Shown here: positions 19,904 through 34,538 of the stretch, piece after piece
How the letters are laid out: each line of letters begins with the position of its first letter
How positions within the stretch are numbered: the stretch's first letter is position 1
Source: Promethearchaeota archaeon
Lineage (GTDB): Archaea; Asgardarchaeota; Thorarchaeia; Thorarchaeales; Thorarchaeaceae
Assembly (NCBI GenBank): GCA_048939765.1
Contig: JBHLPF010000001.1
Coordinates: 46,073-110,072, forward strand
Length of the DNA stretch: 64,000 nt
Direction: 5' to 3'
Made by a program: the position numbers and the translations under genes
Notes under the pieces: model-generated
Told to the model about the DNA's origin: nothing
Databases searched by the model: none
The model's input: the letters and a program-made list of their open reading frames with translations, nothing else

Positions 19904-20197
19904 TCATGACTGCCAAAGTCCGAATAGGTTCCGTAACGCTCGTGCCCGGTGGTCCTCTATCCGATAGCGGTAGATTTTGATTCTCCCAAACATCTTTTCC
20001 TCGACTAGTCCTGATTTGATAAGTACCTCAAGATGCGATTTGGTCGAGCTATGATTCAAGGAAACTCTCCGGCAAAGTTCGGATATATTCAGCTCACTGG
20101 AAGTGGCTAGTTCTTTTATTATCTTGATTCTCCCTCTCGAAGAGAATAGTTCCTCTATTGGCACTCGAAATCTGTCATCAGTATCAGTAGAAATCAT
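19904..20197 (-). CDS. ArsR-type winged-helix transcriptional regulator
   Basis: 97 aa. An HTH-like segment ELNISELCRRVSLNHSSTKSHLEVLIKSGLVEE resembles the ArsR/SmtB recognition helix and wing. Confidence 0.5.
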   Translation of the reverse strand: MISTDTDDRFRVPIEELFSSRGRIKIIKELATSSELNISELCRRVSLNHSSTKSHLEVLIKSGLVEEKMFGRIKIYRYRIEDHRARALRNLFGLWQS

Positions 20198-20208
20198 GAA
20201 ACCCCCCT

Positions 20209-21402
20209 TCAGGTGAGTAAGTCGAGTAGATGTTGTTCCAACATATCAGCTGGTACTTCAGAGAGACCTATCAAGGTTGTCTGACCTCTCTGGCCAGCAC
20301 CAGAACGTTTTGTGTCCAAAAGCCCATGCGCATTTAGATCCTGTACCCATTCCCAGATTTGAGTGTGTGCCCTTGGATCTTCGCCGTACTCCTCGCATAT
20401 TGGACGGTACATCTCTTCGAGCTCACCCATTGTGATATATGCGCCTCGATTCATCCTGAGCTGTCTTGCAGCTGCCAGAAGAAGAAGCATATTCTGTCGA
20501 GGGAGAGTTGCGAACACCTCCTTCCTCAACTCGGGATGTATGTCTGCCTTGGCCTTACGGGCAAAATCAGGAATCACCTTTCGGGAGCCTGTACTATCAG
20601 CCTGCTTCCCTGCGCGCCACAGGAGTTCGATTGCATAACGGGCGTCCCCCCATTCTGAGGCAATGTCGCAGATAATCTGCAGTGTTTCATCCATAACTGC
20701 ATCCTTCTCGAATGCCATGTCTACTCGCTCCCTTAGAATATCATATAGTGCATCAGCTGCATATTGGTCAAAACGAAGTATGTTTCTTTGAAGTGTGCTC
20801 AATGTGCTTTGATCCAAGATACTCTCATCAAGGGGTATCTTTCTCCCCACTCCGATTACAGACAGACGCTGAGGAGCATTCAACCGGTCATCCATCAGCC
20901 TAGTCAAATCATAGAGAATGTCAGCGCCTCGTTGTCTAATGAAATAGTCGAGCTCATCAAGTATCAGTAGAAGGTATCTGTCTTCTTCATCAAGTACTTC
21001 GACAACCATCTGAAGAATTTCTTCAGGTGAATGGCCTCGTCGAGGAAACCTTGGTTTAAACTCCCTCAATATCCGCAGATACACAAGATAGGTGCTCTTG
21101 CTCACTCTACAGTTTATGTGCAGTTTGTGCAGTTGAATGCCACGTCGCGTAGCGGCCTTAACCATTTGATCCGCAAAACGCTTAGTCACAGCTGTCTTTC
21201 CAGTGCCTACTGGGCCCTCGATAATGAACTTCTGACTCGCGCGACCGGGCGAAGCAATCAGTGTCTTGAAACTCTGGGCCAGCTTCCTCAACTCAGGCTC
21301 TCTATGCGGGAGAGTTTCTGGAACATAGTCGATGGATAGCAATTGCTCCGACTTGAATACACTCCGTCGACTCAGTTCGTCTTCTACATAGTCATGCGTC
21401 AT
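20209..21402 (-). CDS. cdc6: Orc1/Cdc6 replication initiator
   Basis: 397 aa. AAA+ Walker A GPVGTGKTAV, Walker B LILDELD and a C-terminal winged-helix region. Confidence 0.92.
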   Translation of the reverse strand: MTHDYVEDELSRRSVFKSEQLLSIDYVPETLPHREPELRKLAQSFKTLIASPGRASQKFIIEGPVGTGKTAVTKRFADQMVKAATRRGIQLHKLHINCRVSKSTYLVYLRILREFKPRFPRRGHSPEEILQMVVEVLDEEDRYLLLILDELDYFIRQRGADILYDLTRLMDDRLNAPQRLSVIGVGRKIPLDESILDQSTLSTLQRNILRFDQYAADALYDILRERVDMAFEKDAVMDETLQIICDIASEWGDARYAIELLWRAGKQADSTGSRKVIPDFARKAKADIHPELRKEVFATLPRQNMLLLLAAARQLRMNRGAYITMGELEEMYRPICEEYGEDPRAHTQIWEWVQDLNAHGLLDTKRSGAGQRGQTTLIGLSEVPADMLEQHLLDLLT

Positions 21403-21834: not shown

Positions 21835-22971
21835 ATGGCCGGTCGCGATTCAACAATCAACTTCTGGCAGGGGAATCAGGCATGCGCTGAAGCTGCAATT
21901 GCAGCAGGATGCCGGTTTTTCGCTGGCTATCCAATCACACCAGCTTCAGAGATAGCAGAAATCATGGCAGAGAATCTTCCAATTGTTGGAGGGACGTATC
22001 TCCAAATGGAGGACGAGATTGGTGCGATATCTGCGGTAATAGGTGCCTCATGGGGTGGCACTTTGTCAATGACAGCAACATCTGGCCCTGGCTTCAGTCT
22101 CATGCAGGAGAATATAGGATATGCAATTATGACTGAGACTCCTTGTGTCATTGTGGATGTCCAACGTGCAGGACCCAGTACTGGGCAGGCGACAAAAGGA
22201 GCACAAGGAGATTTCCAGCAATCAAGATGGGGTACACATGGTGATGTCGAGAGCATAGTATTATGTCCTAATTCTGCACAGGAAACATTCGAACTCACCT
22301 TGCGTGCCTTTCATCTCTCGGAGAAGCTTAGACATCCAGTGGTAATTCTTTCAGATGAAATTGTGGGACATTCTCGGGAGAAGGTTGTTGCGAACACCAA
22401 GGAGGACCTAAGGGTTCAGCGAAGGTATGCAGAGCCTGGAATTCCTCCATTTGATGGCTTCAATAAGGATGGTTGGATAGAGATGCCAAGGTTCGGCGAG
22501 GGACATAACCTACTAGTCACTGGATCAACACATGACAAATATGGCTATCGAAGGACCTCTGATCCCGAAGTACATGACAGACTGATTCGTCGAATCTCAG
22601 AGAAAATTCATAATGAACGTGCCTTTCTCACAGATGTGGTGGTTTCAGGTCAAGAGTCAGCTGAGTGGGGAATTATATCGTATGGGTGCACATCAAGATC
22701 GGTAGAGGAGTTGATTGCTAGAAGTTCAGGTGTCCCTCCTCTGAGATCACTACGATTGAGAACTGCATGGCCATTTCCAGATTCTGAGATAAGAGAGTTC
22801 GCCAAATCAGTTGATCGATTGCTGGTGCCCGAGCTTAGTCTAGGACAGCTCTTCAGAGAGGTTTCAAGAGTAGTTAGCGACTCTGTCGACATGGTTTCAC
22901 TAACTAAGATTGGCGGAGGATTGATGATTGAACCGGATGAAATCGTGGAAAGAATTAGGTCAGAGTCATAG
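21835..22971 (+). CDS. korA: 2-oxoacid:ferredoxin oxidoreductase alpha subunit (KorA/OorA family)
   Basis: 378 aa. N-terminal FAGYPITPASEI and the SGPGFSLMQE region are characteristic of COG0674 alpha subunits. No beta subunit gene is adjacent. Confidence 0.85.
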   Translation: MAGRDSTINFWQGNQACAEAAIAAGCRFFAGYPITPASEIAEIMAENLPIVGGTYLQMEDEIGAISAVIGASWGGTLSMTATSGPGFSLMQENIGYAIMTETPCVIVDVQRAGPSTGQATKGAQGDFQQSRWGTHGDVESIVLCPNSAQETFELTLRAFHLSEKLRHPVVILSDEIVGHSREKVVANTKEDLRVQRRYAEPGIPPFDGFNKDGWIEMPRFGEGHNLLVTGSTHDKYGYRRTSDPEVHDRLIRRISEKIHNERAFLTDVVVSGQESAEWGIISYGCTSRSVEELIARSSGVPPLRSLRLRTAWPFPDSEIREFAKSVDRLLVPELSLGQLFREVSRVVSDSVDMVSLTKIGGGLMIEPDEIVERIRSES

Positions 22972-24698
22972 TCTGTAGATGAGGGAGATGTTGGTCCAGG
23001 AGGATTGGGGTTCCCAATGATTATCACAATACTAGTTCTCATCCAGATGGCCACGGGTTGTGAGATATTTGCTTCTTCGCACCAAGGGCTGCTTATGTAA
23101 AAATGAAGAATGTGTAATCCGGGATAGATATTGAGTAGGAAGGGGACTTCTATTGATGATTTGACGTCTGCATTGTTGATTGTGAAAAAAGGTGTAAGCG
23201 CTGAATCAGCATAGATTCTCAAATCAATGAGCCCAACAATTTGACCGTTGTCATCTGTAGCATTGATATCTATCTGAGTAGTTTCCCCATAATAGACAAG
23301 ACCAAGCTCTACATCAACATCAATGACTCCATGAATATTGATTTCCAAGTCAATTGAATCCTGAACACTGTACGCGCTTTCAAGCATTTCAATGGACATT
23401 ATATGAGGGCCCAGTGATGTATTACTGCTGATAGGGAATGTTATCTCCGCTTGACTGTTTGCAGTGACTGATATGGTAGCATTGATTTCTCCAATTGAAT
23501 CAAAGATTTCTATTGGGATAAGCTGGTCTTGTAGTGATGTGGAATTAATGCTTACAGTCAAGGTGACGTTGTTTCCTCGCGCGGTAGACCAAGTAGCATT
23601 TGTGGTTGAAAGATAGACAACATAAGGTGTAACGTCAATTATGACCGATTCAGATTCGTTTCGATAGAGAGGATTAACTGCTGTAAGATTCACAGAATAG
23701 AAACCTGGTTCCACAGTGATCGGTATTGATGCACTGTAGAGTCCGTTGCCAAGTTTGTTCATCGTACCCGAAGAAAATGTCGTGGTCCACAGAATCGAAC
23801 TATCAGAAATCGGCTGACTGTCTTGTGTCTTCTGTTCTACCACTATGTCAGCTGATTCGGTTTGACTGCCATCTGGTGTTTGACAATGAATTGATGGCGG
23901 TGTAGACAAGATTGTCAGATTGGAAACGGCCCTTGTTACCACAAGTGGAAAAGAATTTGAGAAGGGAAGGAAGCTTTCCGTTCCATTGCCCGCTATCGTG
24001 ACTGTGTAATCTCCAGGCGGACCAGTAGTGTCAGTCCAGTTAATCCTTAGTTCTCCGTCTGAGGAAGTTGTCGTATCAATTTGCAGTATTGAATCAGATG
24101 TGGAATTGAGAAGTGTGACTGTCACAGGGCTGTTTCTATATGGAATGGATTGGTTGAGTGCACTTGCAACTTTGAAGTCTAGGGTGGAATTTGTGTTGAA
24201 TTCAATGTTCAACGGTGATAGTGGAAGAACATTAAGATGGCCCCTTGTTATATTCACAACAACAGTATCTCCCTCGCCCTGTGAGTAGGAATCATAGATC
24301 TCCACGTTGAAAATCACAAAGGCTTGAGCACCATTTACTCCTGGTGAGGTGTCTTCTGGGAGGATAGTGTAGGATGAGTTGAAATGTCTTACATCAGTTG
24401 AGGGTGGGACGTAATAGAGGTCTGAGAATGCAGGCCCTTGATCGGTCACTACCGCAAAGGACACGTAACACCACCCATCTCCACTGAAATCAGCAATTAG
24501 CTCAGCAACCATGTTCATTGTTTCGCCGACCTCATACACTAGCTTGTCAGTTTCGAAGTAGTGGAATTCGAAGTAGAACGCAGAAACAGGTGCGACAAGA
24601 CCGAATACAATACATGTGGAAACAATGACTGATGCTAGTGTCCTTTGGCTCAAGAAACCCACCAAAACCCGGTCAGTATGTTGCCTAAAAAACAGCAC
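22650..24698 (-). CDS. Secreted or cell-surface glycoprotein (signal peptide, Ig-like repeats, many N-glycosylation sequons)
   Basis: 682 aa. N-terminal hydrophobic signal/anchor (TLASVIVSTCIVFGLVAPVSA) and about 30 N-x-S/T sequons. The S/T/P-rich C-terminal tail is encoded antisense to the last 321 nt of korA. The true 3' end is therefore uncertain. Confidence 0.6.
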   Translation of the reverse strand: MLFFRQHTDRVLVGFLSQRTLASVIVSTCIVFGLVAPVSAFYFEFHYFETDKLVYEVGETMNMVAELIADFSGDGWCYVSFAVVTDQGPAFSDLYYVPPSTDVRHFNSSYTILPEDTSPGVNGAQAFVIFNVEIYDSYSQGEGDTVVVNITRGHLNVLPLSPLNIEFNTNSTLDFKVASALNQSIPYRNSPVTVTLLNSTSDSILQIDTTTSSDGELRINWTDTTGPPGDYTVTIAGNGTESFLPFSNSFPLVVTRAVSNLTILSTPPSIHCQTPDGSQTESADIVVEQKTQDSQPISDSSILWTTTFSSGTMNKLGNGLYSASIPITVEPGFYSVNLTAVNPLYRNESESVIIDVTPYVVYLSTTNATWSTARGNNVTLTVSINSTSLQDQLIPIEIFDSIGEINATISVTANSQAEITFPISSNTSLGPHIMSIEMLESAYSVQDSIDLEINIHGVIDVDVELGLVYYGETTQIDINATDDNGQIVGLIDLRIYADSALTPFFTINNADVKSSIEVPFLLNIYPGLHILHFYISSPWCEEANISQPVAIWMRTSIVIIIGNPNPPGPTSPSSTDYDSDLILSTISSGSIINPPPILVSETMSTESLTTLETSLKSCPRLSSGTSNRSTDLANSLISESGNGHAVLNRSDLRGGTPELLAINSSTDLDVHPYDIIPHSADS

Positions 24699-24766
24699 AC
24701 GAATAGAACGACAACTTTAATTCCAGACTGACTGCCAACCAAGCGCTGAAGAGAGAGCGTGAGAAT

Positions 24767-25132
24767 ATGGTAGTCAGGCTAAAGAATGCCACAGTTGACT
24801 CAATTGAAGACACTGAAACAAAGAGACTGAAAGTTGTCAGGATGATTGCCAAAGAGGAAGGAGCACGTATTTCATTGGAGCTTCCTGAAGCCCTGTCTGG
24901 TACAATAAAGCCAAGGGATGAAGTCACTGTTATATTTGATTCCAAACCAATCGCACGAGGAAACAATGCTAAGCTATATGCAGAAGGCAAAGTGTTTCGA
25001 ATAAGGAACGAGAATGGGATTGAGGTCACTGGCACCATAGGAGGGCTTAGAATGACTCTTGACCTCAGTAATCCTACAGCTGCTCAACGAAAGACATTTG
25101 ATCAAAAAAGATTCTTGATGGCTATAATCTGA
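24767..25132 (+). CDS. Probable RNA polymerase subunit Rpo8 (Rpb8-like, OB-fold)
   Basis: 121 aa. The C-terminal GTIGGLRMTL resembles the Rpb8 signature (...FGGLLMRL). It lies immediately upstream of tfb. The call is tentative. Confidence 0.35.
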   Translation: MVVRLKNATVDSIEDTETKRLKVVRMIAKEEGARISLELPEALSGTIKPRDEVTVIFDSKPIARGNNAKLYAEGKVFRIRNENGIEVTGTIGGLRMTLDLSNPTAAQRKTFDQKRFLMAII

Positions 25133-25311
25133 GAAGGTCTTAGAGAATTCATCTATACAGAATAGTTTCGGGCATCTCTCTTTCTGTCAGTCCGGACTGC
25201 TGACATCCTCTATAAAGTACTGAGAATTTGCTCTGTAGTACAGTATGTTCTAAAGAACGAACTGAATCCCTCCTGAAATCTAGTTAGGACCCGGGCCCAT
25301 GCGTTATATGG

Positions 25312-26349
25312 GTGTGGTCTTTGATTGATGAAACATTCGAGGCTATTCAAAACTCGTCTTGGTCTTGCCCCGACTGTTCCGGTCTGATAACGGCAAACCA
25401 GGGCTATATAGTATGTGTAGAATGCGGTCTAGTAATCTCTAGAGAATACGTGTCACCTACCTACCAGATGGGTGAAAAGGTATCTGACAGTGCACCTGAT
25501 GCAAGTGTATACGTATCTCTTGGCAATCGTATGCATATTGTTGACGGGTTGGGGAGCTATATTGGCTTCCATAAGGACAGATATTTCCAGGATGCACAAG
25601 GTCAGACTCTTACAGCACGATCGCAGAAGAAATTCAAGCGGCTTAAGATGATATACAGCACACGAATACGGATTGGCCGAAACGAGGCAAAGTATAGAGC
25701 CCTCAGAACTCTCAACCATGTTTCTAAGCTACTTATGCTAAATGAACAGGTCCGTGATCGTACTGCCTATCTATACAAGAAGATATCCTCTGAGTCTTCA
25801 GAAAAGATTAACAACAATATCCTGCTCATAGCTGTATGCCTTCTGATGGCTGTTAGAGAGTTCAAGGACGGAGCACCAATCACCTTGGATGAGATAGCCA
25901 ATACATTCGAGAAATGTGGTCATCGTGTTAACGTCAGGGCTATTGTTAGAGAGGCATTGAAACTCAAATCGCTGACAGGTGTTGCCCCCGAAATTCGTCG
26001 TCCAGATGACTATGTGCCAAGGGTCTTGTCCATGTTGATGAACAGTGAAAAGGTGCTCAGAAAAGTGATAGCTCGTGGATGGGAGCCAAAGAAGTATGAG
26101 AATGCTCTCAGAGATAAAATCCTTGAAGTTCTAGAAATGATACCGGCTTCAAAGAGAGGAGGAAGGAACCCCTTCATATTCACTGTTTCTGCTGCCTACG
26201 CAAGCGATCGTCTAGTTGCAGATGAGCATGGAAGGCGTTCTGTACTTACTCAGAAGCTTGCCTCAGAAGCGACTGAGGTGGCTGAGTACAGCATTCGGGA
26301 CCATTTCGGAATGATGAAGAAAGTGCTTGCAGTGGTTTCTCTAACCTAG
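25312..26349 (+). CDS. tfb: Transcription initiation factor IIB (TFB)
   Basis: 345 aa. N-terminal zinc ribbon CPDCSG...CVECG, B-finger/linker and two cyclin-fold repeats. Confidence 0.9.
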   Translation: MWSLIDETFEAIQNSSWSCPDCSGLITANQGYIVCVECGLVISREYVSPTYQMGEKVSDSAPDASVYVSLGNRMHIVDGLGSYIGFHKDRYFQDAQGQTLTARSQKKFKRLKMIYSTRIRIGRNEAKYRALRTLNHVSKLLMLNEQVRDRTAYLYKKISSESSEKINNNILLIAVCLLMAVREFKDGAPITLDEIANTFEKCGHRVNVRAIVREALKLKSLTGVAPEIRRPDDYVPRVLSMLMNSEKVLRKVIARGWEPKKYENALRDKILEVLEMIPASKRGGRNPFIFTVSAAYASDRLVADEHGRRSVLTQKLASEATEVAEYSIRDHFGMMKKVLAVVSLT

Positions 26350-26399
26350 ATGACAATGTGATGCCGATTTGAATTACACTCCCAAAGGCGAGGATATGA

Positions 26400-28094
26400 A
26401 TGGAGGAAGATAGGCTGGAATTGATCAGATGTCCAGACACAAGATGCAAGGATTGCTCTGAGATGACCGCGTCAGAATGCACCAGAATCTCTATGCTATT
26501 CGAAGAAGGGAATAGAAAGAAGGTGCTAATTCTGGAAGATTCGAGAAGGCTTCTTCATCTGGGTGGACTGACTGATCCAATCCCAACAAGTCCTCCTTGG
26601 AGAGGTGATGGATGGGAATCGGTCTATATAGGTGATTGCGAGTTTCCAGACAGTGATTGGCTTCCAGTAGATGCCTACTTGGTAGGACCATATCTTTCAT
26701 TCTACTTCTCAAGAACAGGCGGAATGGAGATATTTCATCGGTCGTATCCACTAGTGAAGACTTCGATCGAGTATGGACTCATGCAGGAACTGAATGAGTC
26801 TATTGGCAGTAATCTCCAGGAATCAATAGGAAGGTCCGATGTTTCCACTCGGCTTTTGCAGGTTGCTGACAGTGTTTGTAAGAAGCTCCTGAAATCTTTG
26901 CCCGAGATAAGCACTGCGACACGAGAGAGAATTTCTACGATTGTGGCAAACAAAACGACTGTGCTAGATACATTCCTTCCAATTCTATTGGATGATGATG
27001 TTGAAGAAGTGTACGTGGATTGTCCAGGAAAGCCAATCTATTTTGATCATCGTAGGCTAGGAAGATGTATCTCAAAATATGAGATTCATCACGAAGATGT
27101 CCCTCGTCTTACCACACTGTTACGTGCAGAGAGCAATCTCCATCTTGATAGAAGAAATCCTTCCTTGAAGACTGATTTGAATCTCTTTGATACCAATCTG
27201 CGAGTATCTGCCAGCCTACCGCCGCTAAGCCCTGATGGATTGCACATGGAAATTCGGCGGGCGAGGAGGAATGCTTTCACCATTTTGGACCTAATTTGGA
27301 ATGGAACACTGCCTATTGAAGCGGCGGCAGCGCTTCTTCTGGCACTTGGGTGCAGATTCAACATAACGATAACCGGAGGTCCCGGGACCGGCAAGACTAC
27401 TCTATTGAATGCACTTGACGCGGATAGTCCAAAAACCTGGAGAAAAATCTACATAGAAGATGCAGTAGAAAGCAGAGATCTTCGCGGTCACAACCAAGTT
27501 CGTTTCAAAGTCGACCCAGTTGATGAAGTAGATGGGCATTTTGATAAATCGTTAGAAATCGTCAAGACCCTCCATAGGTCACCAGACTATCTTGTGCTTG
27601 GTGAGATTCAAACTGCAGAACATAGCCAAGCGCTTTTCCAAGCTATTGCAGCTGGTCTTCGTGCAATACAAACCTGTCATAGCTCCTCAGCAGCCAGTCT
27701 TGTGTCACGTTGGATCACTGGACATAATATCGACAAATCCAGTATCGCCATGATGGATTTGATTGTGACAATGGTACGACCAGTACCCGGAGAGTCGATT
27801 AGGAGAGTCAGTGAGATTGTTGAAGTGCAACGAGAGGTTTCAGAAGGTGTACTCAAATTCGTAGGACTCAGTACTGTCTACAATTGTAATTCATCCCAAG
27901 ATTTGCATTGGGCAACGGACGGCGCGTATCTTTCTTATGCACGGGCAGCTGGACATGAAAGCCACATCCAAGCATACGACAGAATAATTGATCACCTATC
28001 CAAGAGATTACGAACAGCAGACAGGAGCAATGGTCGAACATTGGGAAAAGATGTCTGGACTGAAGGACTGCCATTGTGGTTTGCACACATCTGA
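26400..28094 (+). CDS. FlaI/VirB11/GspE-family secretion ATPase with a Cys-rich N-terminal extension
   Basis: 564 aa. Walker A ITGGPGTGKTTLLNALD, Asp box/Walker B KIYIEDAVE and His box RSPDYLVLGEIQTAEH. The N-terminal roughly 100 aa contain CPDTRCKDC...C. No FlaJ/TadC-like polytopic partner is adjacent. Confidence 0.75.
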   Translation: MEEDRLELIRCPDTRCKDCSEMTASECTRISMLFEEGNRKKVLILEDSRRLLHLGGLTDPIPTSPPWRGDGWESVYIGDCEFPDSDWLPVDAYLVGPYLSFYFSRTGGMEIFHRSYPLVKTSIEYGLMQELNESIGSNLQESIGRSDVSTRLLQVADSVCKKLLKSLPEISTATRERISTIVANKTTVLDTFLPILLDDDVEEVYVDCPGKPIYFDHRRLGRCISKYEIHHEDVPRLTTLLRAESNLHLDRRNPSLKTDLNLFDTNLRVSASLPPLSPDGLHMEIRRARRNAFTILDLIWNGTLPIEAAAALLLALGCRFNITITGGPGTGKTTLLNALDADSPKTWRKIYIEDAVESRDLRGHNQVRFKVDPVDEVDGHFDKSLEIVKTLHRSPDYLVLGEIQTAEHSQALFQAIAAGLRAIQTCHSSSAASLVSRWITGHNIDKSSIAMMDLIVTMVRPVPGESIRRVSEIVEVQREVSEGVLKFVGLSTVYNCNSSQDLHWATDGAYLSYARAAGHESHIQAYDRIIDHLSKRLRTADRSNGRTLGKDVWTEGLPLWFAHI

Positions 28095-28118
28095 GGCTAT
28101 CTTGTTTCGTTTCTGTCT

Positions 28119-28364
28119 TTGAGGGTAGTTAAAATACCATTCCATGGACAGGTAATCAGGTGGAATTCTATGTACGACCCGATAAGGGATGAAAAGGGCG
28201 GTCCGCTGGTTGAGGAGAGTCTCCTGCTTGGTATTGCAGTAGTCACCGTATCGATAGTCATTGCTGTGATACTTCAGGCAACAGGTTGGGCACAAGACGT
28301 TGTGGCAGGACTCTTTCAGATTCTTGAAGACAGCTGGAGTAGCTTCACAAGTCTATTTCCATGA
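28119..28364 (+). CDS. Small membrane protein, possibly a type IV pilin-like (class III signal peptide) protein
   Basis: 81 aa. A charged segment (RDEKGG) is followed by a roughly 22-residue hydrophobic helix (LLLGIAVVTVSIVIAVIL), then a second hydrophobic stretch. Sits immediately downstream of the secretion ATPase. Confidence 0.35.
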   Translation: MRVVKIPFHGQVIRWNSMYDPIRDEKGGPLVEESLLLGIAVVTVSIVIAVILQATGWAQDVVAGLFQILEDSWSSFTSLFP

Positions 28365-28461
28365 TAAGTGAAACACTGCTGATGTGATTTTGGTCACGAT
28401 TTGGGGAAAGCCTTATTTGTAGTCTAGAGTGAGCACACCCGCTCCGGACTGGTGCGCCTTA

Positions 28462-28569
28462 GCTCCGGTAGATGATTCATGAAATCCATGATACAACCGT
28501 ATGTAGTCCGGCCCAGCATGAGGGACTCTCGATCCCTCGACCCGGGTTCGAATCCCGGCCGGAGCACCA
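28462..28569 (+). tRNA. tRNA-Glu (anticodon CUC) with a roughly 30-nt insertion near the D-arm 5' side (non-canonical intron position); CCA is encoded
   Basis: The 3' two-thirds is canonical: ...AGGGA-CTCTCGA-TCCCT-CGAC-CCGGG-TTCGAAT-CCCGG-CCGGAGC-A-CCA. The 5' acceptor GCTCCGG is at 28462. It is separated from the D-arm sequence (ATGTAGTCCGGCCCAGCAT) by GATGATTCATGAAATCCATGATACAACCGT. The exact splice boundaries are ambiguous. Confidence 0.6.
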
Positions 28570-28575
28570 ATTCTA

Positions 28576-30540
28576 CTATCTTCCTATTAGACGCCGCCGC
28601 CACAGAACTGGTATGCTAGCAAGCATGACTGATACACCAAGACTGATCAAAATGAAAGGAATTCCTACGCCTTGGGCAGCCATTGCTTCTGTGCTAGAAA
28701 TGATAAGGACATGGTAGCCAGTAGAAGATTGTGTGAACGCGGCTTCCTCTGTTTCATAATAGAGGTTATAGACGCCTGATTCCGTAGGAATGCGAAGAGC
28801 AATCTCAACGATACCCGAATCGTGACTCTTAGTAAGACTCCGTTGACCTAACCACTCATAGTGCAGATTCACATCTTCTAGAGGGGTGCCATTCAACGCT
28901 ATGATGGACAATTGAACTGTAATTTCTTGAAGAGATGGATAGACGGAGTAATTCACCATATTCACAGATACTGGAACGACTCTGCTGACAATGATTTCAT
29001 ATTCTAGGACTACGGGCAGTTCGTAGTTCAATGTGCTACCGTTATAGCCTATGACTAACAGATAGGGACCTTCTACTGAAGAAATGGGGAATTTCGCTTC
29101 GGTAACACCCTCACTATTGGTAGTAGAGGTGGTCACCAAGTGGTTTCCAATTTGCCAGGCAATTGATCGTTCTGGTATATAGATTCCACCGGCATTTAGC
29201 TGAATTTGGAATGTCACAACTTGAGAAGGGGATGCATAGCCCAGTATGCTTTGATAAATCATGATGATATTCGGCTGCGACCAGACTATCACTGGGATTA
29301 TTCTAGTCTTATTTATCAAGAATGAATGCGAAACTTCGAAGTGTAGATTTCTAGGCCCAAGGGGACCATGGAACGTAATGTGCGACATAGTTTTGATTTG
29401 TCCAAAGGAGAATGAAATCAAACGTGACTCGTTGGTGAGTTCATCGTACAATATTATAGTGGCATTGGGAATCGGTCTCATTAAGAGATCATAGAGTGTC
29501 ACTTGGACTTCACTTTCTACTCCTACTGAGATTGGATCTGGCAACTCAATGTAAATTGCTGCGGGGCTTATTACAGATATGTCAAATTCGATGTATGATG
29601 GTGCATAACGGAATGTCCCCGAATATTCTATCCTAATGCTGTGTATCCCAAGTATATACCGTGAATCAATATCCAGGCTGAACCTGGCAACACCATTCAT
29701 GTCGCTCACGATAGCATCTATTGGGTTTTCATCAAGAAACACAACAAGTGATGCGTCAGAGTGATTCTGACCCTCAGCTTGAATTGTCATCTGCACCCAG
29801 AATGAATCATTCAAATGAACGGTAGAGTTGTAGGAATCTTCTAGTTCAATAGATGTTGCTATTTGTTGAATGTTCACAGATATCAAACTCTGTGAACTGT
29901 TTAGAAATCGTGCCATATCCTGTTCGAAAACTATTCTCAACGTATTCTGTCCAGTTATGCACCATGTGCCATTGCAATCTATAATGAAAGTTGCATAGCC
30001 GCTGGCATTCGTTGGAGCAACTGCTAGGAGTGTGTCTTCACTATAAACAGCCATAGTGACCCCACTAATTGATGCATTATGGTCATCAGTGATTTTGGCA
30101 ATGAGAGCAGTTTCATCCTCTGGATGAATAGAGTTCTCGTCGACCTGAACCTCTATGACAGTCGCAGAAACCACAATGACAGAAGACCATTGGCAGGAAG
30201 AAGATAAGGAAAGCGAGGTGTTTCCCTCAAATGTTACGTTTAGCATGGATGGCCCTAAGGGATGATTAATCGAAACGTTCCAAGACACTGTTGCATAGCC
30301 ATTTGTGTCTGTCAAGGCAGACCCAATGAGGACGTCTTGGGTCTGATCGTAGAAGAAAAGACGCTGATTAGCAACCGGATTTCCGTAAGTGCCGTTTTGA
30401 AGGAGTCTTGCAGTAATAGGCAATGAATCTCCACGTACCACAACAGGGATTTCCTCTGCCGATGCTACATCTGCAGTCAAACTAGATACCAAGACCAGTG
30501 CCGCCGATATCATTACTATTCCTATGCAGACTCGCTTCAA
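28576..30540 (-). CDS. Cell-surface glycoprotein (N-terminal signal peptide, repeated beta-rich modules, C-terminal transmembrane anchor)
   Basis: 654 aa. Signal peptide MKRVCIGIVMISAALVLVSSLTADVASA and many N-x-S/T sequons. C-terminal TM helix GVGIPFILISLGVSVMLASIPVLW followed by RRRLIGR. Paralogous in architecture to 22650..24698. Confidence 0.7.
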   Translation of the reverse strand: MKRVCIGIVMISAALVLVSSLTADVASAEEIPVVVRGDSLPITARLLQNGTYGNPVANQRLFFYDQTQDVLIGSALTDTNGYATVSWNVSINHPLGPSMLNVTFEGNTSLSLSSSCQWSSVIVVSATVIEVQVDENSIHPEDETALIAKITDDHNASISGVTMAVYSEDTLLAVAPTNASGYATFIIDCNGTWCITGQNTLRIVFEQDMARFLNSSQSLISVNIQQIATSIELEDSYNSTVHLNDSFWVQMTIQAEGQNHSDASLVVFLDENPIDAIVSDMNGVARFSLDIDSRYILGIHSIRIEYSGTFRYAPSYIEFDISVISPAAIYIELPDPISVGVESEVQVTLYDLLMRPIPNATIILYDELTNESRLISFSFGQIKTMSHITFHGPLGPRNLHFEVSHSFLINKTRIIPVIVWSQPNIIMIYQSILGYASPSQVVTFQIQLNAGGIYIPERSIAWQIGNHLVTTSTTNSEGVTEAKFPISSVEGPYLLVIGYNGSTLNYELPVVLEYEIIVSRVVPVSVNMVNYSVYPSLQEITVQLSIIALNGTPLEDVNLHYEWLGQRSLTKSHDSGIVEIALRIPTESGVYNLYYETEEAAFTQSSTGYHVLIISSTEAMAAQGVGIPFILISLGVSVMLASIPVLWRRRLIGR

Positions 30541-30761
30541 ACATAGTCACTCCGTTTCTTGTGATAGTAGATTGCAACTATGCAAAAGACTCATGCATTG
30601 TGCGTTCTGAGTTCTCTCATGAGTCTGTATTCGAGTTTTTAATCTCCTATCGAACCATCAGATTCTGGGGGAGTTCATATGTAATTGTGAATCACCAAGG
30701 GTAGACTGTAAATTCGTAAGAGGCATTCACAGTGCTCTAGCTCCGGACGGGTGATAACACA

Positions 30762-33700
30762 GTGTCCAGCCATGAATTAAGCAAGGGAGACCGATTTAGA
30801 GTACCATCTAGGAAGGATCTTCCAGGGCTGTGGAAATGGATTGAGCTTGGATGGCTCACTAGCATTTCTATCTTGACTCTTTACTTCATAGTAGTCTACT
30901 TGCTCCCGTTACTGGGACTAATCACCCCAGTTTCAATCCCATCGAAACTGTTCATTGAAGTCATAATCTCCATAGGTCCGGTGTTGATGGGTGTGCTAGT
31001 GGCTCGCAGAAAGCTAGCCTTCGAGCAATCATTGACTGCAGTTTTGGATGATGATTTAGTGGCAATGAACATTGGAAACCATATTGTGGCAACATGCTGC
31101 CTTGATATCATGTCTGCACCCGGCTCAGTCCATATTTCTCGGAATGATCGACCGGAATACGCTACTGCTTTCCTTTTAGCACTTCGCGCAGGAATGAATG
31201 AGAAGGTCAGTATGGCATATGAGGTGGGTGTATGGAGAGGTGAGGCTTTTCTGCGGATTTTCATAACTGGAATAGGCAAGAGTAAGGAAGAGGTTGGGAA
31301 TATTCTTAGACATGAGGCGACTCGAGCAGAGGCTATTTTGATATCCTCCCTTAACAATGTGGAACTCCATCAGCTTAGAGGAGAAAGCCTCAGGGATGCG
31401 GTGTCAGGCATCCTATCTCTTGACTTGGAAGGTAACTCATCCAGAGAGCTGCATACCGTATTGTTGCTGATTAATGGAGAGCCGCGCGTCGCGCCCAGTC
31501 TGGAAAGCTCTCAGATTGGAACTTTCCTCTCTGTTTCACTTCGGCAAGGATACGATGTAAGTCTCACATGTGTCTTTTCGAAAGCTAAACCTGGTCGTGA
31601 ACAGAGAAAACTGGAAGGGCAATGGAAAACAATTCGGGAGAAAGAGAAACGGAACGAAGACTCCTTGGCAGACCATTCAGAGAAGAAGAAGCTGTTACGC
31701 GATTATGAGGAGATACAGGAGAATACTGGCTGGTTTGATTCCTCAGTTTCTCTTGCGGTAAGAACAGACGATTCTGAACATCTTTCAAGCATTCAGGAGG
31801 CGGTGTGCGGTGTTGTTCACTCCATATGGGGAGGAGATGGCAAAGTCAAGTTGAAACCTAAAGCTATAGGAAAGAATGTAGCTTACAGGCTTCTTCTTAG
31901 AAGACATATTACATCGCAAAGGACTCACGTGAGTAGATTGGCTGCTTTCTTGAATACACCGGTCCAGCAGTTGCCTGTCATTGCTGCATCCCCTGTGCCC
32001 GCCTTCACAATTCCATCAAGAAAGTTGGTGAACAACGAGTTCGTCATTGGAAAGGCTGTTTTTGGCGGACGGCGAATAAATGATGTCGGTTTGAAACCCG
32101 AATGGCTCCGGGAGCATGTAGCTGTACTTGGAGCAACAGGCACAGGAAAGACTACTCTTGTGAAACACCTTATTGCCGAACTAAGTAAGAAGTCGAGTGT
32201 TCCATGGTGGATCTTTGATGTGAAAGGATCTGAGTACCAAGAATTGGTGAACCTTTGTGACGATGATATCCTGGTATTGAAACCTGGAGTAGATCCATCG
32301 TTCGTAATTGATTTCATGGATCCAGAGACTGATTCTGGCGAGAGACATGCACACACTACGTTTGCAATATTGAAAGAACTCCTAAACGAGAGAGGTGTTT
32401 CTTCAGAACTCTCGCCTGCAATGGAAAAGCTTCTTCGTGAAGCGGTGTTAGAGGTTGCGCATGCATCAAGTAATGACAACTCGATTCAAGCATTGATTCG
32501 TGAGATATCAGATCTTGCAGGAAAGGATCGGACCGCTATCATGACGAGAGATGCACTCCTTAATCGTCTGGAGATTCTATCTAGAGAACCCCTCGGGACC
32601 ATTCTGAGTGGTGGTCGAAACGCAGTAAGGATCTCAAATCTTATGGATAAGAGGGTGATTCTTGATCTGCAGTATGTTGCTAGGACGGGTGGAATGGATG
32701 CGGCACGTTTGTTATACAATCTCATAGCTAAACGCATCTTTGACTATGCATTACACAGAGGGATAAAGCCAGGTCTTCATCATTTAGTAGTCCTCGAAGA
32801 AGCCAGCAATCTTGTACCTGAAAGCTATACGAGGCATACAGCTGCAGATGTCACCACAGGAGAGTCCATGGTTATGCTCCAGCGGGCAACAGGACAAGGT
32901 GTAGTTGTAATATCAACTCGACCGAATGTTTCTTCGAATATTCTGGCAAACACAGCCACGAAAATTGCCTTTCGACTTCCGTATGATAGTCCCATTGGTG
33001 CCAGATTCATGTCCCTTGATGATGAACAAGAACGGTATCTCAAGACACTGAAGCGTGGAAGAGCGCTGATTGTCTTGCCAGGGACAGAACCGTTCGAGAT
33101 AGCAACTCGACCATTTGAAATGGCCAGCATTCTTGAGAGACCGCCTTTGGAGCCAAGTATTCATGATGAAAGAGAGATTCCAGAGTCTAAAGATGCATCT
33201 ATAGAACATGATACAACAATTCAATCTGGAAGCTTTGACTCTTCTTCAAAGCCAATGGGAGCAGTGTATGACCGATTGGGAGAATTGGGGTCGCATATTG
33301 TTGCGTTTCTTGCCTCTCGGAATATGGCAACCCAAGCTGAAATGGAAGAGATTTTGACAGCAATCGATCCAAGAATGGAAAGTAGCGACATAAACGAGGT
33401 TATTCGTGACTTGGTTTCCTTGGGGACCATTGAGAGAGAAGCTTTACCAATTGTGCCAGGCGACTTCATTTTTACTTTGCCGGGAAGAGGACTTGATGCA
33501 GTAAGCATGATGATAACTGACTATATCATCGAGAAGCTTGGTTTGCATGATGTCACATGGGAACGAAATCTAGATGACAGGCCTGATATCGTTCTTGACG
33601 ACAGGGCGATATTGATACTTCCTCAACATCTCAAAGCATCATCAATGAAAACAACAGTGAACAAAATTCGGAATTATATGAATAATCTGGGTAATGATTT

Positions 33701-34538
33701 CATCGAATTGGTTGTTGTCGTCAGAGGGAGTGTTGCTGCAGCCAAGCTCAGAGAAACAATGAGTGAAACAAATGAGTTTGATGCAGTAAGCATAGTTTCA
33801 GCTTTTCCTAGTTCACTTGATGCAATGATTGAGAACCTAGCAATGGGAACCTCGACTAATGTAGGCTTGACAACTAGCGAGCATAAAACCCGGGCTGATG
33901 CTGGAGTGAATCTCATTGGCGCTATGCATGGTGTTGGAACAGCGACAAACCGTGCAATACAGATGCGACTGTGGTTTCAGTTGATACAAGATTTCGTGGA
34001 TTTGTCAAATGGTAGAACCGAATGGAATGTCTTGCTAGAGTTCATTGAAACAACTGCCCTTCAATCACTTAGGGGGAAAACCACTCCAATGAATATAGAA
34101 GAAGGAAAGCGTGCATTGACAGAGCTGCTAGCGGATGAAGTCCTGATGGCTTTGCGCGTTGGAAATGATCTTGATTTCATTGATTTGGAGGAGGGCCTTT
34201 GGATTGTGAACTCTGGTGAGCTAGGAAAACTCAAGGATTCAGCTGTAGATGCTCTTGAAAAGGAACTACGAAAACGGCAGAATTCGGTTTCCCGCGATCA
34301 TGGCTACTATGATCTCTGTACAAATGGTGTTTCTTACGTGGTCTTTCCGAATCAGCAACAGCTCAATACGCTGCTTCACCTTCAAAGTGATATTGCATGC
34401 AGGACTTGCAAGTCAAGACGAATTGTCTGTGTGCTGACTGCTGCTGAGTATCTTGAGGAAACAATGGTTATGCCGGACAACGTCCTACTCTATGACTTCT
34501 CGGAGTATGTTTCTGTAGCCAGTGCGGCAGGACAATAA
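30762..34538 (+). CDS. Large membrane-anchored P-loop ATPase of the HerA/FtsK/VirB4 superfamily (DUF87-like core) with an uncharacterised roughly 500-aa C-terminal region
   Basis: 1258 aa. Two N-terminal TM helices (residues about 30-80). Walker A VAVLGATGTGKTTLVKHL near residue 455 and Walker B HHLVVLEEASNLVP, as in HerA/VirB4-type hexameric ATPases. No recognisable domains in the first 430 or last 500 residues. Confidence 0.7.
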   Translation: MSSHELSKGDRFRVPSRKDLPGLWKWIELGWLTSISILTLYFIVVYLLPLLGLITPVSIPSKLFIEVIISIGPVLMGVLVARRKLAFEQSLTAVLDDDLVAMNIGNHIVATCCLDIMSAPGSVHISRNDRPEYATAFLLALRAGMNEKVSMAYEVGVWRGEAFLRIFITGIGKSKEEVGNILRHEATRAEAILISSLNNVELHQLRGESLRDAVSGILSLDLEGNSSRELHTVLLLINGEPRVAPSLESSQIGTFLSVSLRQGYDVSLTCVFSKAKPGREQRKLEGQWKTIREKEKRNEDSLADHSEKKKLLRDYEEIQENTGWFDSSVSLAVRTDDSEHLSSIQEAVCGVVHSIWGGDGKVKLKPKAIGKNVAYRLLLRRHITSQRTHVSRLAAFLNTPVQQLPVIAASPVPAFTIPSRKLVNNEFVIGKAVFGGRRINDVGLKPEWLREHVAVLGATGTGKTTLVKHLIAELSKKSSVPWWIFDVKGSEYQELVNLCDDDILVLKPGVDPSFVIDFMDPETDSGERHAHTTFAILKELLNERGVSSELSPAMEKLLREAVLEVAHASSNDNSIQALIREISDLAGKDRTAIMTRDALLNRLEILSREPLGTILSGGRNAVRISNLMDKRVILDLQYVARTGGMDAARLLYNLIAKRIFDYALHRGIKPGLHHLVVLEEASNLVPESYTRHTAADVTTGESMVMLQRATGQGVVVISTRPNVSSNILANTATKIAFRLPYDSPIGARFMSLDDEQERYLKTLKRGRALIVLPGTEPFEIATRPFEMASILERPPLEPSIHDEREIPESKDASIEHDTTIQSGSFDSSSKPMGAVYDRLGELGSHIVAFLASRNMATQAEMEEILTAIDPRMESSDINEVIRDLVSLGTIEREALPIVPGDFIFTLPGRGLDAVSMMITDYIIEKLGLHDVTWERNLDDRPDIVLDDRAILILPQHLKASSMKTTVNKIRNYMNNLGNDFIELVVVVRGSVAAAKLRETMSETNEFDAVSIVSAFPSSLDAMIENLAMGTSTNVGLTTSEHKTRADAGVNLIGAMHGVGTATNRAIQMRLWFQLIQDFVDLSNGRTEWNVLLEFIETTALQSLRGKTTPMNIEEGKRALTELLADEVLMALRVGNDLDFIDLEEGLWIVNSGELGKLKDSAVDALEKELRKRQNSVSRDHGYYDLCTNGVSYVVFPNQQQLNTLLHLQSDIACRTCKSRRIVCVLTAAEYLEETMVMPDNVLLYDFSEYVSVASAAGQ

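Follow-up and report, generated by a model that had tools for sequence, protein, structure and literature searches.

The window, a stretch of 64,000 nucleotides of a Thorarchaeota chromosome, carries genes for a pilus-motor-type ATPase, a pilin-like membrane protein, a TFIIB-like factor, a HerA/VirB4-type ATPase and two glycoproteins. The p121, TFB-like, motor ATPase and 64-aa (small64) genes form a codirectional run, p121 first. The features concerned are as follows.

2134-2712, minus strand: Arf-Ras-like GTPase of the Roadblock operon (2134-4592); Pfam Arf 2.7e-13
2728-3648, minus strand: 306-aa protein of the same operon
3645-4592, minus strand: Roadblock protein of the same operon; Pfam Robl_LC7 1e-7
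19904-20197, minus strand: ArsR-type wHTH protein; HTH_5 3e-8
20209-21402, minus strand: Orc1/Cdc6, paired with the wHTH gene (pair 19904-21402)
22650-24698, minus strand: Surf1, 682-aa ORF, secreted glycoprotein of Ig-like repeats with a Sec-type signal peptide, unanchored at the C-terminus
24767-25132, plus strand: p121, Rpb8/Rpo8-like, 121 aa; Pfam RNA_pol_RpbG 4.8e-4, below the cut-off
25312-26349, plus strand: TFB-like, divergent paralogue of TFIIB/TFB; by profile matches it has a Zn ribbon and both cyclin repeats
26400-28094, plus strand: motor ATPase, 564 aa, T2SSE family, FlaI/afGspE/CpaF type; PF00437 1.7e-18
28170-28364, plus strand: small64, conserved ORF of 64 aa with a single TM, candidate Flp-like (class III signal peptide-like) subunit
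28440-28452, plus strand: upstream copy of the tRNA-Glu acceptor 5′ strand, CGCTCCGGACTGG, read directly
28462-28569, plus strand: tRNA-Glu(CUC), with exon 1 at 28462-28471, a 30-nt intron at 28472-28501 and exon 2 at 28502-28569
28576-30540, minus strand: Surf2, 654 aa, secreted glycoprotein of Ig-like repeats with a Sec-type signal peptide, TM-anchored at the C-terminus
30762-34538, plus strand: membrane-anchored HerA/VirB4-clade ATPase of the DUF87/HerA type, 1258 aa, with 2-3 N-terminal TM helices
37759-38007, plus strand: p82, 82 aa, two-TM hairpin with the basic loop SKRGKG, by translation

The gene order is invariant across 76 of 76 Thorarchaeia loci. The unrelated housekeeping neighbours OFOR, IPK, S10 and GlmS are equally fixed there, so this synteny is mostly without functional weight. 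Outside Thorarchaeia, OFOR, IPK and GlmS are not kept next to the cluster genes, and the retention of the latter is hence selective.

The motor ATPase also matches the TadA family (TIGR03819, 6e-28). Its PDB matches by sequence are 2oap at 1.8e-23, CpaF at 9e-19, FlaI at 3e-16 and VirB11 at 3e-4, and Foldseek with its AF2 model (pLDDT 74.6) gives 2oap 2.5e-24, FlaI 9e-20, CpaF 7e-19 and VirB11 1e-10. The sequence-only reading had called it VirB11-like. A T2SSE-family ATPase is indeed encoded, but both sequence and fold rule out the VirB11 type in favor of the FlaI/afGspE/CpaF type. That reading had also invoked the VirB11 and VirB4 pair that defines type IV secretion. The argument does not hold, since the smaller ATPase belongs to the type-IV-pilus/Tad-type motors and is accompanied by T2SSF-type platform genes elsewhere in Asgard. 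The Walker A, Walker B and His boxes are invariant, the N-terminus has a Cys-rich stretch (CPDTRCKDC...C), and C11, C16 and C19 are nearly invariant.

The TFB-like profile matches human TFIIB over both cyclin repeats (2.1e-10), P. woesei TFB (1.3e-7) and the Zn ribbon 1pft (7e-4). In Hel, Frey, Jord and further lineages its orthologues, 41-45% identical, adjoin either the HerA/VirB4-like gene or that of the motor ATPase. A housekeeping TFB inside the cluster, as had been supposed, is rejected, for the protein scores just 57 bits against the NCBIfam TFIIB cut-off of 384 and its gene is kept with the ATPase across Asgard classes. The TFB-like gene is thus no bystander but the core and most faithful partner of the motor ATPase.

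The p121 gene is found in 76 of 76 Thorarchaeia loci. Of 14 orthologues, nine match RpbG (best 4.4e-5), and the family profile has S. pombe Rpb8 (3h0g_H, E 0.004) as its sole match, in which the GGL motif is aligned. These matches weakly suggest an rpo8 assignment. Treating p121 as another bystander is likewise countered, as operons of an ATPase, TFIIB and Rpb8 have been known in Thermoproteales since 2016, their function then unassigned (PMC4858521).

The pilin-like peptide noticed earlier corresponds to the conserved ORF small64, with the motif K-G-G-P-L-V-E-E-S-L-L-L-G. Its identity is 73-81% in genomes where the neighbouring genes are about 50-60% identical. Across the Thorarchaeia species the median identities are 80% for small64, 77% for TFB-like and 78% for Cdc6, so the first two are constrained like Cdc6. 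The L159 variant, AGSLLEYGLIIG, resembles the Flp G/xxxxEY motif, and no significant Pfam or PDB profile match was found for small64, the Flp and class III Pfam profiles included.

The large protein is a VirB4/HerA-like membrane ATPase as first read, with full-length TrwK/VirB4 ranking first in Foldseek. Its TM helices are followed by an N-terminal domain of about 330 aa, a barrel and P-loop ATPase, a disordered linker and a C-terminal extension of about 470 aa with winged-helix and alpha/beta domains. The NCBIfam scores are 43 for CedD (cut-off 600) and 15 for CedB (cut-off 700), and the P-loop matches PADLOC mad8 (3.5e-17) and HerA models. The family is mostly membrane-anchored, its Loki, Hod and Hel members having 4-6 N-terminal TM helices.

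The two surface proteins had been taken for glycosylated paralogues. Each has Ig-like repeats and 17 N-X-S/T sequons, against 7.3 +/- 2.2 (Surf1) and 6.0 +/- 2.2 (Surf2) expected from composition, but paralogy is not detectable (BLASTP E = 0.26). Surf2 matches Big_3_5 (2.4e-10) and Big_1 (1.5e-9), and Surf1 weakly MG2 and FlgD_ig. The C-terminal anchor ascribed to one of them is the Surf2 TM segment at residues 627-645, the other TM segment being at 6-24. Surf2 is divergently paired with the HerA/VirB4-like gene, a pairing that recurs in L010 (HMM 4.6e-50), and has further homologues in Frey L089 and Hod L174.

The surface proteins are fast-evolving, unlike small64 and TFB-like; the median identity of Surf2 across Thorarchaeia species is 35%. 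The homologous part of Surf1 is about 23001-24698. Its 551-aa orthologue in L002 (40% identity) stops at window residue ~566, the tail matches only OFOR antisense, and Surf1 has no gene call in L004 of the same genome. The last ~115 codons (22650-23000) are thus probably a read-through antisense to the oxidoreductase gene and not real.

The tRNA-Glu in the middle of the cluster has an encoded 3′ CCA and its intron after position 10. Because of this intron ARAGORN misses the gene, finding tRNA-Glu(ctc) only once the 30 nt are excised; Rfam scores the tRNA at 31.6 bits over 28501-28558 only. An insert of 26-39 nt is found in 83 of 98 Thorarchaeia loci and none in 12. The duplicated 5′ fragment reported earlier is present as the second acceptor 5′ strand upstream, and a GCT[CT]CGG[AG]C-like element is conserved at this place in 82 of 95 Thorarchaeia loci, intron-less genes included. 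It is probably a part of the pre-tRNA leader.

Outside Thorarchaeia, the TFB-like, ATPase and small64 genes stay linked as a module, usually joined by two T2SSF-type platform membrane genes (PF00482 2e-5 and 1.3e-4). The type A, B and C loci group TFB-like, ATPase, T2SSF-like, F236 and small64. The cluster genes come together again in several Asgard classes, in varied orders and orientations, which supports the earlier reading in its own comparative-genomic test. The link of the motor ATPase to the HerA/VirB4-like gene is looser than that within the module and is absent in Baldrarchaeia, Frey, Jord and type A loci.

The p82 gene lies beyond the interval 22650-34538 first delimited. Its homologues (n = 590, the best 120 of the 590 all from Thorarchaeia) are located downstream of glmS in Thorarchaeia; in Ranarchaeia L008 one directly precedes the HerA/VirB4-like gene, and in L166 one directly precedes the TFB-like gene. 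By its architecture p82 is a possible VirB2/CedA1-like partner, and it has no Pfam or PDB profile match, VirB2-type and pilin-family profiles included.

Several known systems resemble parts of this cluster. The analogy to Ups and Ced drawn earlier is apt, since in Sulfolobus induction of the Ced importer as well as of the Ups pili requires the TFB paralogue TFB3 (PMC6101591). There too are found a type IV pilus module of ATPase, platform and small pilins, TM-anchored HerA/VirB4-like ATPases, CedB and CedD (PMC11868833), control by a TFB paralogue and a chromosomal rather than mobile location. However, the Sulfolobales loci are separate and TFB3 is truncated and encoded elsewhere, whereas the TFB-like gene here lies in the operon and keeps the Zn ribbon and both cyclin repeats. 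The window also lacks a CedA-like 6-7-TM channel, and the large ATPase differs from CedB and CedD by its far lower scores and its C-terminal extension.

Tad/Flp and Epd-type pili (type IVc filaments) share the CpaF/TadA-like motor, CpaF structures being among the best matches, the paired single-domain T2SSF-like platform proteins of other Asgard classes, and a very short subunit whose hydrophobic N-terminus reads G/xxxxE(E/Y). Unlike these, the Thorarchaeia locus has no platform or prepilin peptidase gene, small64 fails their Pfam profiles and is strongly conserved in its C-terminal half, and the operon includes a TFIIB paralogue.

Bacterial type IV secretion or conjugation (VirB4, VirB11, VirB2, VirB6, VirD4) and Ted of Thermoproteales are similar in the membrane-associated large ATPase, and the p82 hairpin recalls the VirB2/CedA1/TedC architecture. 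They differ in that the second ATPase here is not VirB11-type, VirB6/TedA, VirD4 and relaxase are absent and p82 has no VirB2-type match. In the 64-kb window we found no platform gene, prepilin peptidase, VirB6/CedA-type channel or relaxase.

Given the gene identities and fold classes observed, together with the co-localisation across classes, we favor one linked surface-filament and translocase system, analogous to Ups, Ced and TFB3, at a probability of roughly 40%. The vertically inherited Asgard neighbourhood would join two units. One would be a Tad/Epd-like type IV filament module of the FlaI/CpaF-type motor and the Flp-like subunit small64 of ~50 residues, in most Asgard classes with two T2SSF-type platform proteins, sharing its transcript with a highly diverged TFIIB paralogue dedicated to it and, in Thorarchaeia, with the Rpb8-like gene too. 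The other would be the membrane-anchored HerA/VirB4-clade ATPase of hexameric type, with the winged-helix C-terminus in Thorarchaeia and with p82 and N-glycosylated Ig-repeat surface proteins as recurrent companions.

In such a system, the TFB paralogue would drive the transcription of the gene set. The motor and platform would push small64, as a short filament or pseudopilus, out through the glycoprotein coat, and the large ATPase, in physical cooperation with the filament unit, would power polymer translocation across the membrane at the filament site. The polymer would most plausibly be DNA, although DNA transfer by the cluster is pure conjecture on our part.

The main alternative, only slightly less probable, is that two unrelated units have stayed neighbours through ancient synteny near the replication origin. 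Only TFB-like, motor ATPase and small64, with platform genes where present, would then make up the real system. The HerA/VirB4-like protein would be a separate housekeeping membrane DNA translocase, acting for example in chromosome segregation or resolution at division, and the glycoproteins would be ordinary cell-envelope proteins. Iyer et al. in 2004 reportedly proposed such a role for the archaeal membrane relatives of HerA and FtsK, and the C-terminal winged-helix domains would fit an FtsK-gamma-like DNA-reading role.

The large ATPase gene is pan-Asgard among the contigs sampled and flanked by housekeeping genes. The wHTH-Orc1/Cdc6 pair is within 10 kb of it in Thorarchaeia, Ranarchaeia L008, Loki L171, L170 and L173; S10-operon genes are next to it in Thorarchaeia, Ranarchaeia and Loki, and PCNA, primase and GINS in Baldrarchaeia. 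That orc1/cdc6 and S10-operon genes accompany it in three classes suggests old synteny, not function. Moreover, it stands alone in Baldrarchaeia L007 and in L009, and the Frey, Jord and type A loci have none within 10 kb of the module.

The pairwise adjacencies, however, are shuffled in a way not expected under passive synteny and so count against two unrelated units. In Loki L171 and the unplaced contig L173, small64 is 0.5-1 kb upstream of the HerA/VirB4-like gene, without any gene for a pilus ATPase in the vicinity. In Hel L006/L092, TFB-like is directly upstream of it, with small64 2.3 kb and the ATPase 8 kb off. In Thorarchaeia L084 the HerA/VirB4-like, TFB-like and ATPase genes are consecutive, and p82 abuts either unit depending on the lineage.

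Less likely, the ATPase/TFB-like/Rpb8-like operon is a transcription-related machine and not a pilus. Working at the membrane, the ATPase would remodel or regulate a complex of RNA polymerase and TFB, with small64 as a membrane tether only. A transcription-related role was suggested for the subclade 4D system of Thermoproteales (Makarova, Koonin and Albers 2016, PMC4858521), which comprises the arCOG05558 ATPase, arCOG05559 TFIIB homologue, RPB8 and arCOG05557/13890 membrane protein. Thermoproteus and Pyrobaculum share the four-part composition, the N-terminally Cys-rich secretion-type ATPase included (PMC4858521). Those ATPases have 335-343 aa versus 564 aa here, their TFIIB has one cyclin domain versus two, and their loci lack both pilins and secreted proteins, whereas this one has a Flp-like gene and two glycoproteins.

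Also in line with a transcription machine, platform genes are absent from all 76 Thorarchaeia loci, the Thorarchaeia ATPase is shorter than its counterparts of other Asgard classes, and small64, without a pilin-family match, is far more conserved than usual for exposed pilins. On the other hand, the ATPase, T2SSF-type proteins and small64 with its class-III/Flp-like N-terminus make up the canonical filament-assembly set in every other Asgard arrangement, which argues against this machine. The Rpb8-like gene is linked in Thorarchaeia only, none being found near the module in other classes. A simpler reading takes TFB paralogues as plain regulators of T4P loci, which commonly carry TFIIB homologues in archaea (PMC4858521).

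A conjugative remnant integrated at tRNA-Glu, or a HerA-based anti-phage defence island, could be read from the repeated tRNA segment, the mad8 and HerA matches and a viral PHROG match of the TFB-like protein, but is close to refuted by the content and order fixed in ~76 Thorarchaeia species, a GC content similar to the remainder of the window, a repeat that is a conserved leader element and no att scar, the replication and ribosomal genes around the locus in several classes, and the lack of partner defence genes. As read earlier, no integrase, relaxase or plasmid gene is seen among the annotated ORFs, which reach to about 50 kb of the window, and the locus looks chromosomal and vertically inherited.

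Two further neighbours recur. In L159 and L161 the wHTH-Orc1/Cdc6 pair is close to the ATPase module as well, and in L170 it lies between the module and the HerA/VirB4-like gene; its membership of the favored system is uncertain. The Roadblock/GTPase operon is distant in the window but beside the module in type A loci, Hod L174 and some Thorarchaeia loci. It is orthologous (28-44% identity) to an operon of Hel L006 that sits between a wHTH gene and the surface protein and ATPase genes.

The part of the locus that recurs most tightly across Asgard classes is a core of three genes, for a TFB-like protein, a motor ATPase and the 64-aa protein small64, joined outside Thorarchaeia (Thor) by two platform-type membrane genes, T2SSF-like and F236. 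We read this core as a set for a type IV filament of the Tad/Epd-like kind that has a TFIIB paralogue to itself. Around it is a looser shell of a HerA/VirB4-like ATPase, the two-helix protein p82, Surf2-type glycoproteins, a Roadblock/GTPase operon and orc1/cdc6-wHTH. The window presents them, with their neighbours, in the following order.

2134–4592 (−): operon of Roadblock, a 306-aa protein (H302) and an Arf/Ras-like GTPase; with CTP synthase among the housekeeping genes around the cluster
11628–21402: replication island of Hel308-like, MCM, GINS, RFC small and large subunits, TruA, ArsR-type wHTH and Orc1/Cdc6
Upstream of the cluster: 2-oxoacid:ferredoxin oxidoreductase
22650–24698 (−): surface protein Surf1
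24767–25132 (+): Rpb8/Rpo8-like protein
25312–26349 (+): TFB-like protein
26400–28094 (+): motor ATPase
28170–28364 (+): small64
28462–28569: tRNA-Glu(CUC)
28576–30540 (−): surface protein Surf2
30762–34538 (+): HerA/VirB4-like ATPase, 1258 aa
37759–38007 (+): p82
Downstream of the cluster: isopentenyl phosphate kinase, ribosomal protein S10 and GlmS

The window has an even GC content of 44–48%. An identical locus is carried by GCA_048940745.1 on contig JBHLOH010000001.1, and the 1258-aa ORF is 100% matched in a Promethearchaeota (Thorarchaeota) MAG. The replication island points to a replication origin in the vicinity of the cluster. In five lineages or more, a wHTH-Cdc6 pair stands no further than 10 kb from the HerA/VirB4-like gene.

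The motor ATPase belongs to the T2SSE family (PF00437, 1.7e-18), and its best NCBIfam match is the TadA family (6e-28). Against PDB sequences it matches Archaeoglobus GspE at 1.8e-23, CpaF at 9e-19, FlaI at 3e-16 and VirB11 at 3e-4, while its AF2 model (pLDDT 74.6) matches the folds of afGspE at 2.5e-24, FlaI at 9e-20, CpaF at 7e-19 and VirB11 at 1e-10. Because VirB11 scores far weaker by sequence and by fold alike, the protein is a motor of the type-IV-pilus/Tad kind and not the VirB11-like ATPase of the sequence-only reading. It provides the PilB/FlaI/TadA-type hexameric ATPase of a type IV filament, and no VirB11 ATPase of type IV secretion was found at the locus. Its N-terminal Cys cluster of C11, C16 and C19 is conserved.

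The candidate filament subunit is small64, which has a single TM helix and the motif K-G-G-P-L-V-E-E-S-L-L-L-G. The motif fits the N-terminus of a class III/Flp-type prepilin (K-G|G-P-L-V-E-E..., with E at +5). Its median identity is 80% over about 70 species, and it is 73–81% identical between genomes whose adjacent genes share 50–60%. A distant homologue in locus L159 reads AGSLLEYGLIIG (AGSLLEY). The small64 profiles gave nothing significant against Pfam and PDB, the Flp1_like family reaching E 0.047 in one member.

A platform gene of the T2SSF kind (PilC/TadB/TadC/FlaJ) was not found beside the ATPase, with no polytopic ORF in the 64-kb window, and the T2SSF-like or F236 genes are present at 0 of 76 Thor loci; nor does any locus in the wider Thor set (L011–L086 and L109–L157) have them. 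They follow the ATPase in every non-Thor Asgard arrangement observed, where PF00482 recognises them at a borderline level (2e-5 and 1.3e-4). We count the loss or relocation of platform genes in Thorarchaeia as a new observation. No prepilin peptidase (PibD/FlaK/EppA/TadV) was seen among the annotated window ORFs.

The large ATPase of the shell has two to three N-terminal TM helices and a DUF87/HerA core (8.7e-15). Its AF2 model over residues 59–1258 (pLDDT 78) comprises a TM helix, an N-terminal domain of about 300 residues, a barrel with the ATPase and, beyond a disordered linker, a C-terminal extension of two winged-helix-like and two alpha/beta domains. A phmmer search with the protein against PDB sequences gave no match, and the CedD, VirB4 and HerA equivalogs matched only below threshold (NCBIfam CedD 43 bits against a cut-off of 600, CedB 15 against 700). 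Foldseek puts full-length TrwK/VirB4 of R388 at the top (3.9e-20, about 860 aligned columns); Sulfolobus HerA (1.4e-14) and TrwB (5e-11) come after it. On this order of folds together with the sub-threshold equivalog matches, the modelled protein is placed in the HerA/VirB4 clade. Its layout of TM helix, N-terminal domain and ATPase matches the published description of CedD.

As to the HerA-NurA DNA end-resection helicase, the HerA_Thermprot score is 19 bits against 800 and no NurA, Mre11 or Rad50 gene is nearby; a separate bona fide NurA-HerA pair occurs in locus L172. As to the HerA-based anti-phage systems (SIR2/DUF4297-HerA, MADS), the PADLOC mad8/HerA matches cover the ATPase domain or P-loop only, and no partner effector genes are present at the locus. 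As to VirB6, VirD4 and relaxase, the annotated window ORFs include no polytopic ORF and no such Pfam match.

The p82 family has 82 aa with two TM helices and a conserved basic loop. Of its 590 homologues, the best 120 listed are all from Thorarchaeota. Besides the window copy, p82 genes lie at 8058–8297 in the Ran locus L008, where p82 abuts the HerA/VirB4-like gene immediately upstream, and at 3323–3601 in L166, where it abuts the TFB-like gene. Its two-helix architecture may be compared with that of the VirB2-like CedA1/TedC of the Ced/Ted systems, with no profile match. The p82 profiles gave nothing significant against PDB and Pfam, and no CedA-like gene occurs in the 64-kb window.

Two collection scans supplied about 125 loci of the Thor type, on which we mapped the window proteins. 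The Rpb8-like, ATPase, small64, both surface and HerA/VirB4-like genes are present at 76/76 loci with at least 6 kb on each side of the TFB-like gene. The oxidoreductase gene is also present at 75 of these 76, and isopentenyl phosphate kinase, S10 and GlmS at most. Since the entire neighbourhood is frozen, housekeeping genes included, synteny within Thor says little about function and we rejected it as functional evidence.

More distant homologues were drawn from a representative search and the two collection scans. One genome scan was dominated by Thor species (4 of 80 loci non-Thor), and the best 120 matches listed for the HerA/VirB4-like protein and for the motor ATPase are all from Thorarchaeota. 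The HerA/VirB4-like family extends, by the representative search and by cluster names, to the Hel, Loki, Baldr, Ran, Hod and Njord lineages with 23–33% identity over the N-terminal domain and the ATPase. The TFB-like family has 233 relatives in the GTDB species representatives. Gene arrangements beyond Thor are these, with types A and B naming arrangements and L-numbers the compared loci.

Hel L006 and L092: HerA/VirB4-like with TFB-like (42% identity, 3e-90) as its immediate upstream neighbour and with small64 at 2.3 kb downstream; next come wHTH, Roadblock/H302/GTPase, a C-terminally anchored glycoprotein and the ATPase
Type A: one operon of TFB-like, ATPase, T2SSF-like, F236 and small64, then Roadblock/H302/GTPase
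Type B: small64, TFB-like, ATPase, T2SSF-like, F236; then wHTH-Cdc6 in L161 and L170, followed in L170 by HerA/VirB4-like
Frey/Jord: operon of ATPase, T2SSF-like and F236, divergent to small64 and TFB-like
Loki L171 and L173: small64 0.5–1 kb upstream of HerA/VirB4-like, wHTH-Cdc6 nearby; no pilus ATPase within 10 kb
L010: Surf2-like and HerA/VirB4-like as a divergent pair
Hod L174: HerA/VirB4-like ORF with about six TM helices at its start, and the Roadblock/H302/GTPase operon 4.5 kb upstream
Baldr L007 and L009: HerA/VirB4-like without module partners

Several minor features accompany these arrangements. The motor ATPase, about 560 aa long in Thor, is shorter there than in most other Asgard loci, with 687–753 aa in Frey/Jord, type A, L094 and L159, and 455–528 aa in type B, L158 and L166. 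A gene for a B12-binding radical SAM protein adjoins the HerA/VirB4-like gene in L006 (14179–15729) and L171 (6985–8526). The Freyarchaeota chromosome L089 has an Asgard actin gene (1289–2443; Pfam Actin, 5e-137) some 4 kb away from its ATPase/platform operon, probably by coincidence.

Our main reading, at a probability of roughly 0.4, is that the filament module and the HerA/VirB4-like translocase would act as one linked system, with DNA as the presumed substrate. Its closest worked-out analogue is in Sulfolobales, where the type IV pili of the Ups system work with the Ced importer to exchange DNA and neither is induced without the TFB paralogue TFB3 (PMC6101591). CedB and CedD there are TM-anchored HerA/VirB4-like ATPases (PMC11868833).

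Two independent units standing side by side through an old origin-proximal synteny are the serious alternative, quite possible in our judgement. In three classes the HerA/VirB4-like gene is also found near orc1/cdc6 and genes of the S10 operon, and it is absent near the core in several lineages. Against this, the pairwise adjacencies of shell and core genes are shuffled among the classes, and such shuffling is usually how functional linkage looks.

A non-pilus, transcription-related machine of ATPase, TFB and Rpb8 is unlikely, and its precedent is the Thermoproteales "subclade 4D" operon. In that operon, of the arCOG05558/05559 system, RPB8 and a TFIIB homologue accompany a small membrane protein and a secretion ATPase whose N-terminus bears an additional Cys-rich region (Makarova, Koonin, Albers 2016, PMC4858521). 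The paper assigns the operon no function and suggests that it is "possibly transcription-related" (PMC4858521). The window shares the operonic Cys-rich ATPase, TFIIB homologue and RPB8, the last by weak evidence, in a co-directional run from the Rpb8-like gene to small64 with gaps of 50–180 nt. However, the 4D loci have a 4–5-TM partner and are without pilin or secreted proteins, whereas the locus here has small64 and the glycoproteins. Moreover, the 4D ATPases are of 335–343 aa and the one here of 564 aa, a comparison by size and published description.

The TFB-like protein belongs to the TFIIB family. Its profile spans both cyclin repeats in the match to human TFIIB (2.1e-10) and also finds the Zn ribbon (7e-4), and the protein is far from canonical TFB (57 bits against a 384-bit cut-off). 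The tfb and rpo8 genes had been taken for housekeeping genes inside the cluster, which no longer stands, since both lie in the conserved module and the TFB-like protein is highly divergent. As the same association occurs in Thermoproteales 4D, they are module members and not interlopers. The TFB-like protein also matches the viral family phrog_20431 (function unassigned) at 5e-17, so TFB-like genes circulate in archaeal viruses too.

A mobile element or defence island is very improbable and was rejected, because the PADLOC and PHROGs matches are domain-level only and the chromosomal context is fixed.

The linked-system reading has a fuller form, which we consider unlikely. It would be an ancestral, chromosomally fixed Asgard apparatus for cell-to-cell DNA exchange beside the origin, with its own TFIIB paralogue, combining a small64 Tad-like filament, a T4SS-derived HerA/VirB4-type translocase and a Roadblock/small-GTPase positioning module. 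In it p82 would be a conduit subunit, and polytopic N-termini would serve as channel domains in Loki and Hod. Homologues with four to six N-terminal TM helices, which could be a fused channel domain, are in L171 at 10001–13654 (Loki), L174 at 6525–9569 (Hod) and L006 at 10001–14182 (Hel), against two to three in Thor. The Roadblock/GTPase operon is reminiscent of the bacterial MglA/MglB control of type IV pili. In Hel, type A, Hod and some Thor genomes an orthologous operon is the immediate neighbour of the HerA/VirB4-like gene or of the pilus-type module. If this form were true, the prokaryotes most closely related to eukaryotes would have the equivalents of Ups, Ced and TFB3 physically merged in one apparatus.

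No closer relatives of eukaryotes than the Asgard archaea are known, and to our knowledge hardly anything has been learnt about their surface machines or about how they exchange genes. The kinds of component are already known; new are the Asgard-wide distribution, the Flp-like gene beside a HerA/VirB4-type ATPase and the p82 family. Within the library searched, we found no paper linking Asgard archaea with VirB4/Ced-type ATPases or the arCOG05558/05559 system. If the main reading holds, it would define a pan-Asgard family of membrane HerA/VirB4-type ATPases and, likewise throughout Asgard archaea, a pilus-type module that has a TFIIB paralogue to itself. It would also extend the Thermoproteales association of ATPase, TFIIB and Rpb8 to a second phylum, which argues for an ancient association. 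If the units cooperate, they would be a candidate system for DNA exchange or surface filaments. Even under the rival reading, small64 and p82, conserved families of unassigned function, and the divergent TFB paralogue become defined targets.

Surf1 and Surf2 both have a Sec signal, Ig-like repeats and 17 N-X-S/T sequons each, where 6–7 ± 2.2 are expected. The C-terminal TM anchor proposed for one of them is indeed there, in Surf2 only, but their proposed paralogy was not detected by BLASTP (E 0.26). The 682-aa ORF of Surf1 overlaps the oxidoreductase alpha gene antisense by 322 nt (22650–23000), and its orthologue in L002 ends at residue about 566, before the overlap. The sole match of the Surf1 tail is the antisense of the oxidoreductase gene, and the ORF is left uncalled by the gene caller in the same genome. 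Similar long read-through ORFs occur in other Thor genomes such as L001.

The tRNA-Glu(CUC) gene has a 30-nt intron after position 10, and ARAGORN calls it only once the intron is removed. The intron is non-canonical, with an internal hairpin that looks compensatory across species, and 12 loci are intron-less. The duplicated tRNA 5′ fragment noticed before is real, a copy of the acceptor 5′ strand at 28440–28452 in the leader. It is kept at 82 of 95 Thor loci, intron-less genes included, so it is a selected leader element and its reading as an integration scar was rejected. Near the other end of the window, Rfam finds a 107-nt tRNA (49.8 bits, 62161–62267) that is absent from the ARAGORN output and neighbours tRNA-Leu(UAA) at 62385–62472; it is probably another intron-containing tRNA.
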